IMG/VR virus record: IMGVR_UViG_2667527792_000004
Reading direction: 5' to 3' (one strand)
Length of the DNA stretch: 4,715 nt
Source of the DNA: a virus
Taxonomy: Duplodnaviria; Heunggongvirae; Uroviricota; Caudoviricetes
Each line of letters starts with the position of its first letter. The first letter of the stretch is position 1. This document shows positions 1-4,715 of the stretch, piece after piece. Both the position numbers and the translations under genes were made by a program. The notes under the pieces are model-generated. The model worked only from the letters and a program-made list of their open reading frames with translations, did not search any database and was not told the origin of the DNA.

Positions 1-425
1 AATTAGACCAGCAATATCTAAAAGATCTACTTATCGCATTCGAAAAAACTCATGGCCCTGACACGATGCTTAGTGAACTAGAGGATAATGGCTTTAATAG
101 ATATGACCAAAATTTTATTTTCCATATGCGATTATTATGCGACTACGAATTAATAGTCAGGGTTGATGGAAAACCTGGGTTCGGTCATATAATGTCCAAC
201 GAGTTAGGGGAAGGTGTTGGATATAGTTGGATCGAAGTACCACTGAGGTTGACAGCAAGAGGGCATGATTTTATTGCTGACTTGCGTCAAAAGGAGGTCT
301 GGCAAACTATAAAAACAAACTTTAAGGATGAGGGAATTAGTACACTAATAAGTGTTTCAAAATCACTAGCAAAAGGCTTTGCAAGGAAAAAGATAAAAGA
401 TATTACAGGAATAGATATTGAATAA
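1..425 (+). CDS. 5'-partial hypothetical phage accessory protein (ea-region moron; tentatively resembles DUF2513-type small phage proteins)
   Basis: The frame is open from base 3 to TAA 423-425 (141 codons). There is no in-frame start before ATG 66 and no Shine-Dalgarno in front of ATG 66, so the true start is probably just upstream of the window. The segment is visibly AT-rich compared with the rest of the window. It sits where ea8.5 lies in phage lambda. The family assignment is from memory of motif spacing only. Confidence 0.55.
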   Translation, partial: LDQQYLKDLLIAFEKTHGPDTMLSELEDNGFNRYDQNFIFHMRLLCDYELIVRVDGKPGFGHIMSNELGEGVGYSWIEVPLRLTARGHDFIADLRQKEVWQTIKTNFKDEGISTLISVSKSLAKGFARKKIKDITGIDIE

Positions 426-469
426 TTCTTAGCATCAGCAACTACTGCCTTTGGTGGAAATTATATCTG

Positions 470-496
470 AACTCGCTACGGCGAGTTTTGTTTTAT
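470..496 (+). terminator. Putative intrinsic terminator hairpin (AACTCGC-TACG-GCGAGTT) followed by a T-rich tract
   Basis: Perfect 7-bp inverted repeat at 470-476 and 481-487 with a 4-nt loop, then TTGTTTTAT. Lies between the accessory ORF and the 55-aa ORF. Confidence 0.4.
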
Positions 497-507
497 GGAG
501 ATGATAA

Positions 508-675
508 ATGCACTTCCGAGTCACAGGTGAATGGAATGGAGAACCATTCAACAGAGTTATCGAAGCAGAGAACATCAATGACTGCTATGACCACTGGATG
601 ATATGGGCCCAGATAGCACATGCAGACATAACCAATATTCGAATTGAAGAACTGAAAGAACACCAAGCCGCCTGA
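508..675 (+). CDS. Small hypothetical protein, 55 aa, matching the lambda ORF between ea8.5 and xis (orf55 / lambdap35-like)
   Basis: ATG 508 is preceded by GGAG at 497-500 (7-nt spacing). Translation is MHFRVTGEWNGEPFNRVIEAENINDCYDHWMIWAQIAHADITNIRIEELKEHQAA, near-identical to my recollection of the lambda ORF at this position. It is below the 60-aa cutoff of the supplied ORF track. Confidence 0.7.
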   Translation: MHFRVTGEWNGEPFNRVIEAENINDCYDHWMIWAQIAHADITNIRIEELKEHQAA

Positions 676-690
676 TGGCGGTTTTTTCTT
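666..690 (+). terminator. Putative intrinsic terminator (GCCGCC-TGAT-GGCGG stem-loop plus T6 run); the stop codon of the 55-aa ORF lies in the loop
   Basis: Inverted repeat 667-672 / 677-681 followed by TTTTTT at 682-687. Confidence 0.45.
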
Positions 691-702
691 GCGTGTAATT
701 GC
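689..702 (+). promoter_or_regulatory. cII-type activator site TTGC-N6-TTGC of the int promoter pI (-35 region)
   Basis: TTGCGTGTAATTGC has direct TTGC repeats 6 nt apart, the arrangement of cII sites at lambda pRE, pI and paQ. Its position puts the transcription start inside the first codons of xis, as known for pI. Confidence 0.55.
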
Positions 703-714
703 GGAGACTTTGCG

Positions 715-933
715 ATGTACTTGACACTTCAGGAGTGGAACGCTCGCCAGCGACGCCCAAGAAGCCTTGAAACAGTTCGTCGATGGGTGCGCGAATGCAG
801 GATATTCCCTCCTCCGGTTAAGGATGGAAGAGAATATCTGTTCCACGAATCAGCGGTAAAGGTTGACTTAAATCGACCAGTAACAGGTAGCCTTTTGAAG
901 AGGATCAGAAATGGGAAGAAGGCGAAGTCATGA
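715..933 (+). CDS. xis: Excisionase Xis (lambda-type), 72 aa
   Basis: Full-length ORF whose translation (MYLTLQEWNARQRRPRSLETVRRWVRECRIFPPPVKDGREYLFHESAVKVDLNRPVTGSLLKRIRNGKKAKS) matches lambda Xis as I recall it. GGAG lies 8 nt upstream. Its 3' end overlaps int by 23 bp, as in lambda. Confidence 0.95.
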   Translation: MYLTLQEWNARQRRPRSLETVRRWVRECRIFPPPVKDGREYLFHESAVKVDLNRPVTGSLLKRIRNGKKAKS

Positions 934-1981
934 GCGCCGGGATTTACCCCCTAACCTTTATATAAGAAACAATGGATATTACTGCTACAGGGACCCAAGG
1001 ACGGGTAAAGAGTTTGGATTAGGCCGAGACAGGCGAATCGCAATCACTGAAGCTATACAGGCCAACATTGAGTTATTTTCAGGACACAAACACAAGCCTC
1101 TGACAGCGAGAATCAACAGTGATAATTCCGTTACGTTACATTCATGGCTTGATCGCTACGAAAAAATCCTGGCCAGCAGAGGAATCAAGCAGAAGACACT
1201 CATAAATTACATGAGCAAAATTAAAGCAATAAGGAGGGGTCTGCCTGATGCTCCACTTGAAGACATCACCACAAAAGAAATTGCGGCAATGCTCAATGGA
1301 TACATAGACGAGGGAAAGGCGGCATCAGCCAAGTTAATCAGATCAACACTGAGCGATGCATTCCGAGAGGCTATGGCTGAAGGCCATATAACAACAAACC
1401 CGGTCGCAGCCACTCGCGCTGCAAAATCAGAGGTAAGGAGATCAAGACTTACGGCTGACGAATACCTGAAAATTTATCAAGCAGCAGAATCATCACCATG
1501 TTGGCTTAGACTTGCAATGGAACTGGCTGTTGTTACCGGGCAGCGAGTTGGTGATTTATGCGAAATGAAGTGGTCTGATATCGTAGATGGATATCTTTAT
1601 GTCGAGCAAAGCAAAACAGGCGTAAAAATTGCCATCCCAACAACATTGCATGTTGATGCTCTCGGGATATCAATGAAGGAAACACTTGATAAATGCAAAA
1701 AGATTCTTGGCGGAGAAACCATAATTGCATCTACTCGTCGTGAACCGCTTTCATCCGGCACAGTATCAAGGTATTTTATGCGCGCACGAAAAGCATCAGG
1801 TCTCTCCTTCGAAGGGGATCCGCCAACCTTTCACGAGTTGCGCAGTTTGTCTGCAAGACTCTATGAGAAGCAGATAAGCGATAAATTTGCTCAACATCTT
1901 CTCGGGCATAAGTCGGACACCATGGCATCACAGTATCGTGATGACAGAGGCAGGGAGTGGGACAAAATTGAAATCAAATAA
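911..1981 (+). CDS. int: Tyrosine site-specific integrase Int (lambda-type), 356 aa
   Basis: The 356-aa translation begins MGRRRSHERRDLPPNLYIRNNGYYCYRDPRTGKEFGLGRDRRIAITEAIQ and ends HLLGHKSDTMASQYRDDRGREWDKIEIK, matching lambda Int apart from a few substitutions. It contains the BamHI site (GGATCC 1816-1821) characteristic of lambda int. Confidence 0.97.
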   Translation: MGRRRSHERRDLPPNLYIRNNGYYCYRDPRTGKEFGLGRDRRIAITEAIQANIELFSGHKHKPLTARINSDNSVTLHSWLDRYEKILASRGIKQKTLINYMSKIKAIRRGLPDAPLEDITTKEIAAMLNGYIDEGKAASAKLIRSTLSDAFREAMAEGHITTNPVAATRAAKSEVRRSRLTADEYLKIYQAAESSPCWLRLAMELAVVTGQRVGDLCEMKWSDIVDGYLYVEQSKTGVKIAIPTTLHVDALGISMKETLDKCKKILGGETIIASTRREPLSSGTVSRYFMRARKASGLSFEGDPPTFHELRSLSARLYEKQISDKFAQHLLGHKSDTMASQYRDDRGREWDKIEIK

Positions 1982-2009
1982 TGATTTTATTTTGACTGAT
2001 AGTGACCTG
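1978..2009 (+). other. Int arm-type binding sites P'3, P'2, P'1 of the P' arm
   Basis: ATAATGATTTT (1978-1988), ATTTTGACTGA (1989-1999) and ATAGTGACCTG (1999-2009) are reverse complements of the arm-type consensus C/AAGTCACTAT. P'3 overlaps the int stop codon. Confidence 0.7.
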
Positions 2010-2016
2010 TTCGTTG

Positions 2017-2030
2017 CAACAAATTGATAA
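2017..2030 (+). other. IHF binding site H' of attL
   Basis: CAACAAATTGATAA fits the reverse complement of the IHF consensus WATCAANNNNTTR (YAANNNNTTGATW). Confidence 0.55.
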
Positions 2031-2035
2031 GCAAT

Positions 2036-2069
2036 GCTTTTTTATAATGCCAACTTAGTATAAAAAAGC
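2036..2069 (+). repeat. Perfect 11-bp inverted repeat (GCTTTTTTATA ... TATAAAAAAGC) spanning the inner P' arm and the core
   Basis: Seen directly: 2036-2046 and 2059-2069 are reverse complements separated by 12 nt. It is an intrinsic feature of lambda att DNA. Confidence 0.8.
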
Positions 2070-2115
2070 AGGCTTCAACGGATTCATTTTTCTATTTCAT
2101 AGCCCGGAGCAACCT

Positions 2116-2140
2116 GTGAACACATTTTCAGTTTCCCGTC
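2116..2140 (+). pseudogene. ybhC: 5' remnant of ybhC (first ~8 codons with its RBS), the host gene flanking att-lambda on the gal side
   Basis: GGAG at 2106-2109 then GTG 2116. Translation VNTFSVSR matches the N-terminus I recall for YbhC (MNTFSVSRLALALAF...). The frame then diverges and stops at TGA 2161-2163. Confidence 0.4.
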
Positions 2141-2384
2141 AGCAACAGCGGCCCCAGGTCTGAAACCGTCGCCCGTACCGAATGGCCTTTCTCGCCAAAG
2201 ATATCCCACACCACCACCGGATTAGCATGCGGTTGCCAGTCATTTACGCCGATATTTTTAAGCCTTGCGAGCAGTTTTTCCCCCTGGTTAAATACGCCAG
2301 AAGTCTTGCTGATTACGCTCGATGGCAGCGAAGTTCCCGACGTGCTGGCGGATTATTTGCGCCGCTTTCAGCCTGATTGGGTGG

Positions 2385-2522
2385 ATAGCCGAGTTGCAGA
2401 GTATGCAGCGTTCCTTGCAACGCCTTAACGATGCCTGTTGTGGGACCGCCCATAGCAGTGTTTATTGTTCGATTCTTGAAGCTCTTGAACAAGGGGCGAG
2501 TGGCGTTAAGAGTGGCTGTTGA
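2385..2522 (+). pseudogene. zntR: 3' fragment of zntR (MerR-family Zn-responsive regulator), last ~45 codons only
   Basis: Translation IAELQSMQRSLQRLNDACCGTAHSSVYCSILEALEQGASGVKSGC matches ZntR residues ~97-141, including the metal ligands C114, C115, H119 and C124. There is no start and no HTH domain, and the upstream sequence in this frame is unrelated with stops at 2289 and 2310. Confidence 0.7.
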
Positions 2523-2577
2523 TTTTTTGCACTGGCAGGATTACACTCGCGCCGTAAAATAACCAATTGGAGTTTTT

Positions 2578-2796
2578 ATGAGCCGATATCAGCATACTAA
2601 AGGGCAGATAAAGGATAATGCGATAGAAGCATTACTACATGATCCCTTATTCCGACAGCGCGTAGAGAAAAATAAGAAGGGGAAAGGCAGTTACATGCGA
2701 AAAGGAAAACATGGCAATCGGGGGAACTGGGAGGCCAGTGGCAAGAAAGTAAATCACTTTTTTACCACTGGTCTTCTGCTTTCAGGCGCTTGTTAA
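2578..2796 (+). CDS. arfA: Alternative ribosome-rescue factor A (ArfA / YhdL), 72 aa, intact
   Basis: Translation [72 protein letters not shown] matches E. coli ArfA as I recall it. GGAG at 2569-2572 lies 5 nt upstream of the ATG. It is directly downstream of zntR on the same strand, as in K-12. Confidence 0.85.
2733..2773 (+). promoter_or_regulatory. Stem-loop inside the arfA 3' coding region (candidate RNase III processing hairpin)
   Basis: CCAGTGG at 2735-2741 pairs with CCACTGG at 2765-2771, with further imperfect pairing inside. arfA mRNA is known to be cleaved by RNase III in a 3' hairpin to give a non-stop mRNA regulated by tmRNA. Confidence 0.5.
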
Positions 2797-2808
2797 GAGC
2801 GGTTATGC

Positions 2809-3087
2809 ATGATCGGCGACCCGACTGGCGCCCTGACCCGTAACTTCGACAACATGCGTGAAGATGAAGGTCTGGCTGATCGTGCGACCTTCGTTGTTGA
2901 CCCGCAGGGTATCATCCAGGCAATCGAAGTTACCGCTGAAGGCATTGGCCGTGACGCGTCTGACCTGCTGCGTAAAATCAAAGCAGCACAGTACGTAGCT
3001 TCTCACCCAGGTGAAGTTTGCCCGGCTAAATGGAAAGAAGGTGAAGCAACTCTGGCTCCGTCTCTGGACCTGGTTGGTAAAATCTAA
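2809..3087 (+). pseudogene. ahpC: C-terminal half of AhpC (alkyl hydroperoxide reductase, peroxiredoxin subunit), 5'-truncated
   Basis: Translation [92 protein letters not shown] matches AhpC residues ~96-187. The resolving Cys in VCPAKW is present, but the N-terminal peroxidatic Cys region is absent. The M at 2809 is an internal Met of AhpC. Confidence 0.85.
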
Positions 3088-3106
3088 GTTCCGCAATCGC
3101 GTAATT

Positions 3107-3136
3107 AATCGGGTGCTGCGGCACCCGATTTTCTTC
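3107..3136 (+). terminator. Intrinsic terminator/attenuator between ahpC and ahpF
   Basis: 10-bp stem AATCGGGTGC / GCACCCGATT (3107-3116 / 3121-3130) with loop TGCG, followed by a T-rich run. It lies 20 nt after the ahpC stop. Confidence 0.6.
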
Positions 3137-3215
3137 CCCGCACCATGATGCAAGCTGCATCCAGGTAGCCGCAGAGGCCGCTTGCATGATGATGTTTAAA
3201 GCCCAGGAGATAAAC

Positions 3216-4199
3216 ATGCTCGACACAAATATGAAAACTCAACTCAAGGCTTACCTTGAGAAATTGACCAAGCCTGTTGAGTTAATTGCCACGCTGGATG
3301 ACAGCGCTAAATCGGCAGAAATCAAGGAACTGTTGGCTGAAATCGCAGAACTGTCAGACAAAGTCACCTTTAAAGAAGATAACAGCTTGCCGGTGCGTAA
3401 GCCGTCTTTCCTGATCACCAACCCAGGTTCCAACCAGGGGCCACGTTTTGCAGGCTCCCCGCTGGGCCACGAGTTCACCTCGCTGGTACTGGCGTTGCTG
3501 TGGACCGGTGGTCATCCGTCGAAAGAAGCGCAGTCTCTGCTGGAGCAGATTCGCCATATTGACGGTGATTTTGAATTCGAAACCTATTACTCGCTCTCTT
3601 GCCACAACTGCCCGGACGTGGTGCAGGCGCTGAACCTGATGAGCGTACTGAACCCGCGCATCAAGCACACTGCAATTGACGGCGGCACCTTCCAGAACGA
3701 AATCACCGATCGCAACGTGATGGGCGTTCCGGCAGTGTTCGTAAACGGGAAAGAGTTTGGTCAGGGCCGCATGACGTTGACTGAAATCGTTGCCAAAATT
3801 GATACTGGCGCGGAAAAACGTGCGGCAGAAGAGCTGAACAAGCGTGATGCTTATGACGTATTAATCGTCGGTTCCGGCCCGGCGGGTGCAGCGGCAGCAA
3901 TTTACTCCGCACGTAAAGGCATCCGTACCGGTCTGATGGGCGAACGTTTTGGTGGTCAGATCCTCGATACCGTTGATATCGAAAACTACATTTCTGTACC
4001 GAAGACTGAAGGGCAGAAGCTGGCAGGCGCACTGAAAGTTCACGTTGATGAATACGACGTTGATGTGATCGACAGCCAGAGCGCCAGCAAACTGATCCCG
4101 GCAGCGGTTGACCAGCACGTTTTCCGCAGCTGTGGGTCAAAGAGGCATGATGCGACGCTTGTTCCTGCGCTTTGTTCATGCCGGATACGGCTAATGTAG
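3216..4199 (+). pseudogene. ahpF: ahpF (alkyl hydroperoxide reductase subunit F), 3'-truncated: homology covers about the first 298 codons, then unrelated sequence to a stop
   Basis: AGGAGA at 3205-3210 then ATG 3216. Translation [29 protein letters not shown] ... [17 protein letters not shown] ... [12 protein letters not shown] matches the AhpF N-terminal domain and the start of the FAD domain. After ~4110 it reads [29 protein letters not shown]-stop instead of the AhpF sequence EGGLHQIETASG... Confidence 0.85.
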
Positions 4200-4212
4200 A
4201 TCGCTGAACTTG

Positions 4213-4240
4213 TAGGCCTGATAAGCGCAGCGTATCAGGC
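4213..4240 (+). repeat. REP-like palindromic element (GTAGGCCTGATA ... TATCAGGC)
   Basis: GCCTGATA at 4216-4223 and TATCAGGC at 4233-4240 are reverse complements around a 9-nt centre, preceded by GTAG. Another REP-like motif (GATGCGACGCTT) lies about 60 bp upstream. Confidence 0.5.
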
Positions 4241-4271
4241 AATTTTTATAATTTAAACTGACGATTCAACT

Positions 4272-4430
4272 TTATAATCTTTGAAAAATATCGCCAGAGA
4301 CGAACGGGAAACTGATACACAGCAACCCGACGATAAACAACAGCACGGCAATAAACTGGATTGCTCTGCGATGTTTTTTAAGCATCTCCAGATCAAACTT
4401 CAAAATTGTTGCCTTATCTATATATAACAT
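4272..4430 (-). CDS. Hypothetical small hydrophobic protein, 52 aa (single predicted TM helix)
   Basis: Minus-strand ORF giving MLYIDKATILKFDLEMLKKHRRAIQFIAVLLFIVGLLCISFPFVSGDIFQRL. GGTGG lies 4 nt upstream of the ATG. It has a charged N-terminal part followed by a ~22-residue hydrophobic stretch. It is absent from the ORF track because it is under 60 aa, and I do not recognise it. Confidence 0.3.
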   Translation of the reverse strand: MLYIDKATILKFDLEMLKKHRRAIQFIAVLLFIVGLLCISFPFVSGDIFQRL

Positions 4431-4469
4431 AGAACCACCCTATAAAATTAAGAAGAAAATCCCCTGCTA

Positions 4470-4715
4470 TCAATCTATGCCAAAAACGCGTCTAAGAATG
4501 CAGTCGGAGGGCCATTCCGGCAGTACGCTCAGAATATGGCGCAGATACGCTTCCGGATCGATACCGTTCAGACGGCAGGTGCCGATCAGCCCGTACAGCA
4601 GTGCTCCACGCTCGCCGCCGTGATCGCTACCGAAGAACACGTAATTTTTCTTTCCGAGACAGACTGCACGAAGCGCTCTTTCCGCTGTGTTATTGTCCAC
4701 CTCCGCCAGACCGTC
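4470..4715 (-). CDS. IS66-family transposase (TnpC-like), C-terminal 81 codons; the 5' part lies beyond the window end
   Basis: Minus-strand translation ...DGLAEVDNNTAERALRAVCLGKKNYVFFGSDHGGERGALLYGLIGTCRLNGIDPEAYLRHILSVLPEWP... carries the conserved IS66 transposase C-terminal signature (DNN-AER-LR ... GRKN-F-GS ... LNG-DPEAYL). The frame is open to the window edge. The M at 4700 in the ORF track is a GTG within the protein. Confidence 0.7.
   Translation of the reverse strand, partial: DGLAEVDNNTAERALRAVCLGKKNYVFFGSDHGGERGALLYGLIGTCRLNGIDPEAYLRHILSVLPEWPSDCILRRVFGID
4470..4715 (-). mobile_element. 3' portion of an IS66-family insertion sequence; element boundary not identified
   Basis: Transposase fragment as above. 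No GTAAGCG-type terminal inverted repeat is visible between 4200 and 4470. Confidence 0.5.

Follow-up and report, generated by a model that had tools for sequence, protein, structure and literature searches.

The 244-bp stretch at positions 2141–2384 consists of two ordinary E. coli gene shards lying end to end, and it has no function of its own. The window, by which we mean the whole stretch of DNA that was analysed, is the complete 4,715-bp contig CDRT01000831.1 of assembly GCA_001373215.1. The two shards are neighbours within a longer patchwork, in which a lambdoid prophage end with 25 nt of ybhC is followed by fragments of yjgR, a slipin-family gene, zntR-arfA, ahpC-ahpF, cynX-lacA, hdeD and an IS66 tnpC, in this order. 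The 244-bp unit does not exist as a feature; both shards are parts of known genes and incapable of function. The joining probably took place outside the cell and was followed by assembly of the product; its location in a tube rather than in a cell is what we infer.

The piece map was made by local BLAST against fetched reference loci, and both parents were read across each joint. It comprises eight pieces of 104–2140 bp in mixed orientations, with seven joints in 2.4 kb. The pieces (A to H) and the features within them are as follows:

1–2069, plus strand: phage part of piece A, a lambdoid prophage end, 100% identical to ATCC 8739 and many other genomes
3–425, plus strand: DUF2513 gene, cut by the contig end (the contig begins 4 nt inside the gene)
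508–675, plus strand: 55-aa ORF in piece A
715–933, plus strand: xis (excisionase), piece A
911–1981, plus strand: int (integrase), piece A, followed by the att arm
2055–2069, plus strand: 15-bp lambda core TTAGTATAAAAAAGC, piece A
2070–2140, plus strand: host part of piece A, the bacterial side of the lambda attachment site and the start of ybhC
2141–2281, minus strand: piece B, internal shard of yjgR, codons 74–119 flanked by an incomplete codon on either side, making up nucleotides 1–141 of the stretch
2282–2385, plus strand: piece C, codons 33–66 plus 2 nt from the interior of an accessory slipin-family (SPFH/Band 7) gene, in sense orientation
2383–2806, plus strand: piece D, zntR codons 97–141 and stop (to 2522), a spacer, arfA and the 3′ tip of mscL
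2578–2796: arfA, complete, in piece D
2807–2808: filler ‘GC’ at the D/E joint, present in neither parent in an ungapped comparison of both
2809–4111, plus strand: piece E, ahpC from codon 96 to the stop (3087), a spacer and ahpF codons 1–298 (3216–4111)
4111–4286, plus strand (lacA antisense, from 4253): piece F, the last 40 nt of cynX (to 4150), a spacer and the last ∼34 nt of lacA
4285–4506, minus strand: piece G, the 5′ ∼144 nt of hdeD, whose start codon is at 4430, and 76 nt of the hdeD-hdeA intergenic region
4506–4715, minus strand: piece H, an internal part of the tnpC gene of an IS66-family (ISEc47-like) element, about codons 452–521/537, running to the contig end

Identity inside every piece is 100%, and the apparent mismatches and indels arise from over-extension of the alignments at the joints. 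Because the differences are confined to these alignment edges, the sequence is not noisy. What each piece is and how the joints are built is shown by the DNA and near-certain. Every truncated gene in the contig (ybhC, zntR, ahpC, ahpF, cynX, lacA, hdeD and tnpC) is a part of this same patchwork and not an independent pseudogene.

Positions 2141–2281 were 100% identical over 141 nt to yjgR in 41 complete genomes, and at most 98.6% identical in the others. In the fetched reference locus yjgR reads opposite to the window, and the minus-strand translation from 2280 to 2143 gives 46 residues that correspond to YjgR residues 74–119 and match Pfam HerA_C at positions 72–117 (E = 9e-17). The yjgR product is a HerA-like C-terminal-domain ATPase (DUF853) with a P-loop. 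Thus sequence and reading frame agree with yjgR, whereas the extent does not: identity ends at 2141 and at 2281, the shard holds 46 of 500 codons, and it lacks the start codon, the stop codon and the Walker A region (residues ∼23–55 in Pfam matches). Being antisense to its neighbours and without start, stop or Walker A, the shard cannot make YjgR. The allele is a rare one, found at 100% in 41 of 5,411 genomes, and could help to place the source strain phylogenetically. Of the 20 top carriers of this allele, 19 match piece C, the slipin shard, as well.

The last 103 nt of the 244-nt stretch belong to piece C, with the bases GGA at 2383–2385 being common to pieces C and D. This piece matches genes annotated ‘slipin family protein’ in 1,631 of 5,426 complete E. 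coli genomes (∼30%). The slipin gene adjoins yjbD/rluF and runs in the same direction as the window in the fetched reference locus. The piece is in register on the plus strand, where its 34-residue translation equals slipin residues 33–66, and its sole mismatch to the slipin gene is at 2386, beyond the joint. Identity, frame and strand are therefore those of the slipin gene, but only 34 of its 375 codons are present here and the Band_7 domain, which covers residues 147–318 of the full protein (E = 2.6e-26), is wholly absent, so that what is left is not a functional slipin gene. The shard itself, residues 33–66, had no Pfam match of its own.

The earlier note had reported three frames free of stop codons over most of 2141–2384, and a stop-to-stop scan of all six frames agreed with it almost exactly in the coordinates. 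One plus-strand frame (2120–2425) is stop-free for 102 codons and spans all 244 nt, a minus-strand frame (2131–2352) is open for 74 codons, and a second plus-strand frame (2164–2373) is open for 70 codons; the 71 codons given before for 2164–2376 are these 70 and the stop. The stop-free runs of the remaining three frames reach at most 102 nt within 2141–2384. ORFs that do have a start codon in this region are all short and none of them is in the yjgR frame, which makes the statement that there was no usable start for a full protein a fair one. The ORF listing gives:

2182–2376, plus strand: 64 aa, ATG start, crossing the B/C joint
2306–2428, plus strand: 40 aa, TTG start
2139–2243, minus strand: 34 aa
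2084–2209, minus strand: 41 aa

In the gene calls that accompany the public record, the interval 1981 to 2578 is empty, and a scan of the whole 4,715-nt window found no Rfam family. To obtain the chance level of the open frames, 133 kb of ordinary chromosome from E. coli strain WAT was sampled in steps of 25 nt, which gave 5,293 windows of 244 nt. The third-longest stop-free run served as the statistic; its value in 2141–2384 is 210 nt. A third-longest run of at least 210 nt occurred in 8.2% of these ordinary windows (n = 5,293). The three-frame openness is thus not beyond chance.

The stretch looks open because each shard brings the stop-free frame of its parent gene. The earlier note could not tell which frame was real. 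The real one is the minus-strand frame 2131–2352 over the first 141 nt and the plus-strand frame 2120–2425 over the last 104 nt, and each of them extends into the neighbouring pieces by chance. The third frame, 2164–2373, is coding in neither parent gene and is a chance by-product of coding-type composition. Hence the description of the stretch as an internal coding piece from elsewhere survives in part: it is coding DNA of the E. coli chromosome, but it comes as two pieces from two genes in opposite orientations. The premise that 2141–2384 is one fragment was wrong, since there is a joint at 2281/2282. The possibility, raised at the same time, that BLAST would reveal ordinary ybhC sequence or non-coding intergenic DNA was not borne out, as the matches were to neither.

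The seven joints, two of which are given here as examples (CAGTTTCCCGTCAGCAACAGCGGCC and GCAGTTTTTCCCCCTGGTTAAATACG), are:

2140/2141: joint A/B, overlap of 1 nt
2281/2282: joint B/C, overlap of 0 nt (blunt)
2383–2385: joint C/D, overlap of 3 nt (GGA)
2807–2808: joint D/E, either GC as a 2-nt filler or an overlap TAT and 1 nt deleted
4111: joint E/F, overlap of 1 nt
4285–4286: joint F/G, overlap of 2 nt
4506: joint G/H, overlap of 1 nt

The overlaps sum to 8 over 6–7 joints, compared with 4–4.7 expected for random joining at a mean of 0.67 per joint, and the probability of a sum of at least 8 is 0.08–0.13; it becomes 0.02 if the D/E joint is counted as a 3-nt overlap with a deletion. With the D/E joint read as filler the overlaps are not beyond chance, and microhomology at the joints is not demonstrated. 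Reading the 14 fragment ends directly, we found no common restriction half-site, IS terminus or att sequence, and there were no repeats flanking the joints. Rearrangement mediated by an IS or by the integrase was considered and rejected, because the A/B joint lies 71 nt past the core and piece H is an internal part of tnpC and not an IS end. D/E is the only joint that carries filler, and in its alternative form the TAT overlap of 3 nt goes with the loss of one G of ahpC.

The left flank is an ordinary lambda-type junction of prophage and host. Positions 1–2140 are 100% identical to and collinear with E. coli ATCC 8739, where ybhC follows the prophage, and with many other genomes. The phage records Chlobot, mEp332, lambda and 434 match only to 2069–2073, and strain WAT has the same 90 nt beside an empty attB between ybhC and ybhB. 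The arrangement is that of a lambda-type junction at attB (ybhC/ybhB) as found in ATCC 8739, with int, xis and the core at 2055–2069, followed by the region upstream of ybhC. It differs in that the break towards the 244-nt stretch falls at 2140, which is 71 nt past the core and inside ybhC, and for this reason the A/B joint was not made by Int site-specific recombination. Within the window ybhC starts with GTG at 2116 and contributes its first 25 nt (8 codons and 1 nt), after which identity stops at 2140. This is where the earlier note had placed the edge of ybhC, and its other flank, zntR sequence from about 2383–2386, was also confirmed. The prophage end is 98–99% identical to phages Chlobot, mEp332, ev099, 434 and lambda. 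In strains BR1220 and NCTC9040 IS elements interrupt this region of the prophage end, which may explain the contig end.

No single source locus for 2141–2384 was found by megablast among 5,426 complete E. coli genomes, where none of the 5,413 matching records covered at least 80% of it, and the whole window occurred as a unit in none of the 5,426 genomes. The A/B joint pattern gave no hit in one genome per GTDB species, and the B/C joint pattern gave none in IMG/VR and none in JGI metagenomes. Plasmid and phage collections contained none of the joints, but separate pieces or the prophage part only. M8, GE3 and ATCC 8739, the top matches for other pieces, lack the rare yjgR allele. This hinted at a mixture of strains, and the idea was dropped because strain WAT carries pieces B, E and F (yjgR, ahpCF and cynX-lacA) at 100%, with an empty attB. 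The pieces are thus compatible with a single genome like that of WAT to which the prophage is added. If a chimera arose from a single DNA preparation, its pieces should fit one genome in this way.

The near-blunt joints, the mixed orientations and the perfect distant copies point to random end-to-end joining of fragments. In the reading that we favour, random DNA fragments would have been joined end to end in an essentially blunt manner, fragmented DNA being ligated or concatenated before amplification or library construction, and the concatenated molecule would then have been assembled into a contig. In its structure the contig agrees with an in vitro chimera: loci that are not adjacent are joined, the overlap is within chance, and the pieces are otherwise identical to the genome. 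Chimeric DNA arising from library co-ligation or whole-genome amplification likewise shows perfect distant copies, mixed orientation, minimal overlap and confinement to one data set. Moreover, the contig is number 831 of the draft, and the assembly is therefore heavily fragmented. E. coli has no Ku/LigD non-homologous end-joining (NHEJ) (PMC4872102), and its LigA-dependent alternative end-joining is reported there to use microhomologies and to give large deletions. With NHEJ missing and alternative end-joining producing microhomology-mediated deletions, seven near-blunt joints in 2.4 kb are unlike known cell processes, and on these grounds concatenation in vitro is deemed the most likely origin.

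Coverage is a point against this reading, or at least against a trivial artefact. A short-read assembler needs reads across each joint, and pieces A (2.1 kb) and E (1.3 kb) are unbroken, which indicates that the molecule was present at assembling coverage and that the intact parental loci did not out-compete it. Such coverage is not to be had from a rare library chimera of a single molecule; it requires either concatenation before amplification or fragmentation, or a genuine genomic structure. Chimeras from multiple displacement amplification (MDA) consist in more than 85% of cases of inverted segments, from nearby or from the same molecule, usually with priming overlaps of 2–21 nt (PMC1855051). 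A template switch of this kind fits poorly, because the present pieces come from hundreds of kilobases to megabases apart and overlaps of at least 2 nt are found at 2–3 of the 7 joints. The inverted same-molecule segments of MDA are thus unlike the far-apart loci joined here.

The contig could be real chromosomal DNA of one isolate, in which a break in ybhC beside the prophage was repaired by a one-off complex event, but we consider this unlikely. The event would be either serial template switching (MMBIR or chromoanasynthesis-like), with short stretches copied from distant loci, or capture of chromosome fragments by alternative end-joining. A 2.4-kb tract of shards would then lie between ybhC and an IS66 element, and the 244 bp would be inert pseudogene debris. 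The contig does begin in normal collinear DNA running from the prophage through the attachment site into ybhC, its other end inside an IS66 transposase gene is a typical repeat-induced contig end, and assembly through the 1.3-kb and 2.1-kb pieces implies good read support and an unrivalled path through the assembly. One WAT-like genome could supply all the pieces, and overlaps of 1–3 nt at 5 of the 7 joints together with the 2-nt filler resemble scars of template switching or end-joining. In these respects the contig resembles the products of MMBIR/chromoanasynthesis and alternative end-joining, where short distant segments are strung together with 0–3 nt of microhomology and one small filler. 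Against this, the microhomology here does not clearly exceed the chance level given above, and one joint is blunt. There is no process known in E. coli that chains seven pieces from loci megabases apart, and it is mainly from eukaryotes that multi-segment templated-insertion chains are documented. E. coli does possess a LigA-dependent pathway of end-joining (cited in PMC4872102), but the outcomes reported there are large microhomology-mediated deletions and not seven-piece insertions; moreover, free ends in E. coli, which has no NHEJ, are degraded by RecBCD (PMC4872102). The joints are also absent from the other genomes and metagenomes searched, so that inheritance is unsupported. In its strongest form, in which the contig is a faithful natural chromosome and a single catastrophic repair at ybhC, beside the prophage, inserted material from six or more distant loci, either copied or cut out, we hold this reading to be quite improbable. 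If true, it would be a bacterial counterpart of templated insertion of the chromoanasynthesis or chromothripsis type, in an organism without NHEJ.

If the assembler or scaffolder had made a purely computational mis-join, or had mixed strains or samples, this would leave a mosaic without any physical molecule, as could be imagined for a fragmented draft (at least 831 contigs) with a mosaic unique to one record. We consider it very unlikely, since assemblers need shared k-mers or overlaps of tens of bases and the parents share 0–3 nt. A single read would cover a piece of 141 or 104 nt with the joints on both its sides, which means that the reads must contain the joints, and pieces B, E and F fit one strain with no sign of a mixture. 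That the 244 bp might be a single captured gene fragment, or an expressed novel fusion gene using the 64-aa ORF or the 102-codon frame, is hardly credible. The ATG-initiated ORF 2182–2376 does cross the B/C joint and three frames are open, but each half is 100% identical to a gene of its own, the two genes lie on opposite strands and the change between them at 2281/2282 is abrupt, and the 64-aa ORF sits in a frame that is coding in neither parent. No gene is called between 1981 and 2578 on the deposited contig, openness in three frames is met in 8% of ordinary windows, there is no Rfam match in the window, and the chimeric sequence is not conserved in E. coli genomes, the GTDB species set, IMG/VR or JGI metagenomes. 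A functional fused gene appears essentially excluded as far as the sequence can tell.

The case is mainly a caution that an apparently ‘open’ orphan stretch may be two shards of known genes. CDRT01000831.1 is unfit as evidence for gene order, for novel small ORFs or for truncated forms of ahpF, hdeD and zntR. Potential novelty is confined to the reading as a natural insertion of several pieces in E. coli; should the mosaic exist in the living strain, few such multi-piece templated or end-joined insertions would be on record for this species, and it would bear on bacterial break repair. Nothing in the sequence itself requires such a reading.

To the right of the 244-nt stretch, piece D is 100% identical over 424 nt to strain M8 and others, where it is annotated zntR/arfA/mscL with mscL convergent, and piece E is 100% identical to M8 and WAT except for the alignment edge at the joint. 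Only the first 298 codons of ahpF are present, and its frame continues through the 3′ end of cynX in piece F as far as a stop at 4199. A chimeric AhpF ORF thereby spans 3186–4199, with 337 aa (327 aa from the true start); the public gene call takes it as a protein, and it has matches to Thioredoxin_3 and Pyr_redox_2. On look-up, the truncated AhpF from the true start codon gave no exact match, and from the upstream ATG it matched exactly on one contig of one sample, CDRT01000831.1. Piece F matches the cynX/lacA region of M8 and WAT, with differences at the alignment edge only. The cynX-lacA spacer contains a REP-like palindrome, GTAGGCCTGATAAGCGCAGCGTATCAGGC, at 4200–4245, with weak additional matches across the chromosome; it lies within piece F, away from the joints.

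Piece H is 100% identical from 4506 onwards to the ISEc47 tnpC of plasmid pWP7-S17-ESBL-04_2. Piece G is 100% identical over 222 nt to many genomes, annotated hdeD, and a 52-aa ORF at 4272–4430 consists of HdeD residues 1–48 and a foreign tail. Other truncated HdeD entries of the same 90% cluster were considered as possible carriers of the F/G joint and rejected, as each is ordinary HdeD that stops where its contig does. Short N-terminal fragments with the sequence of E. coli HdeD are also annotated in assemblies labelled Pseudomonas aeruginosa, Klebsiella pneumoniae and Salmonella enterica. hdeD is not expected in these three species, and its fragments in those records suggest either contamination by E. 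coli or the presence of the hde region on a mobile element.
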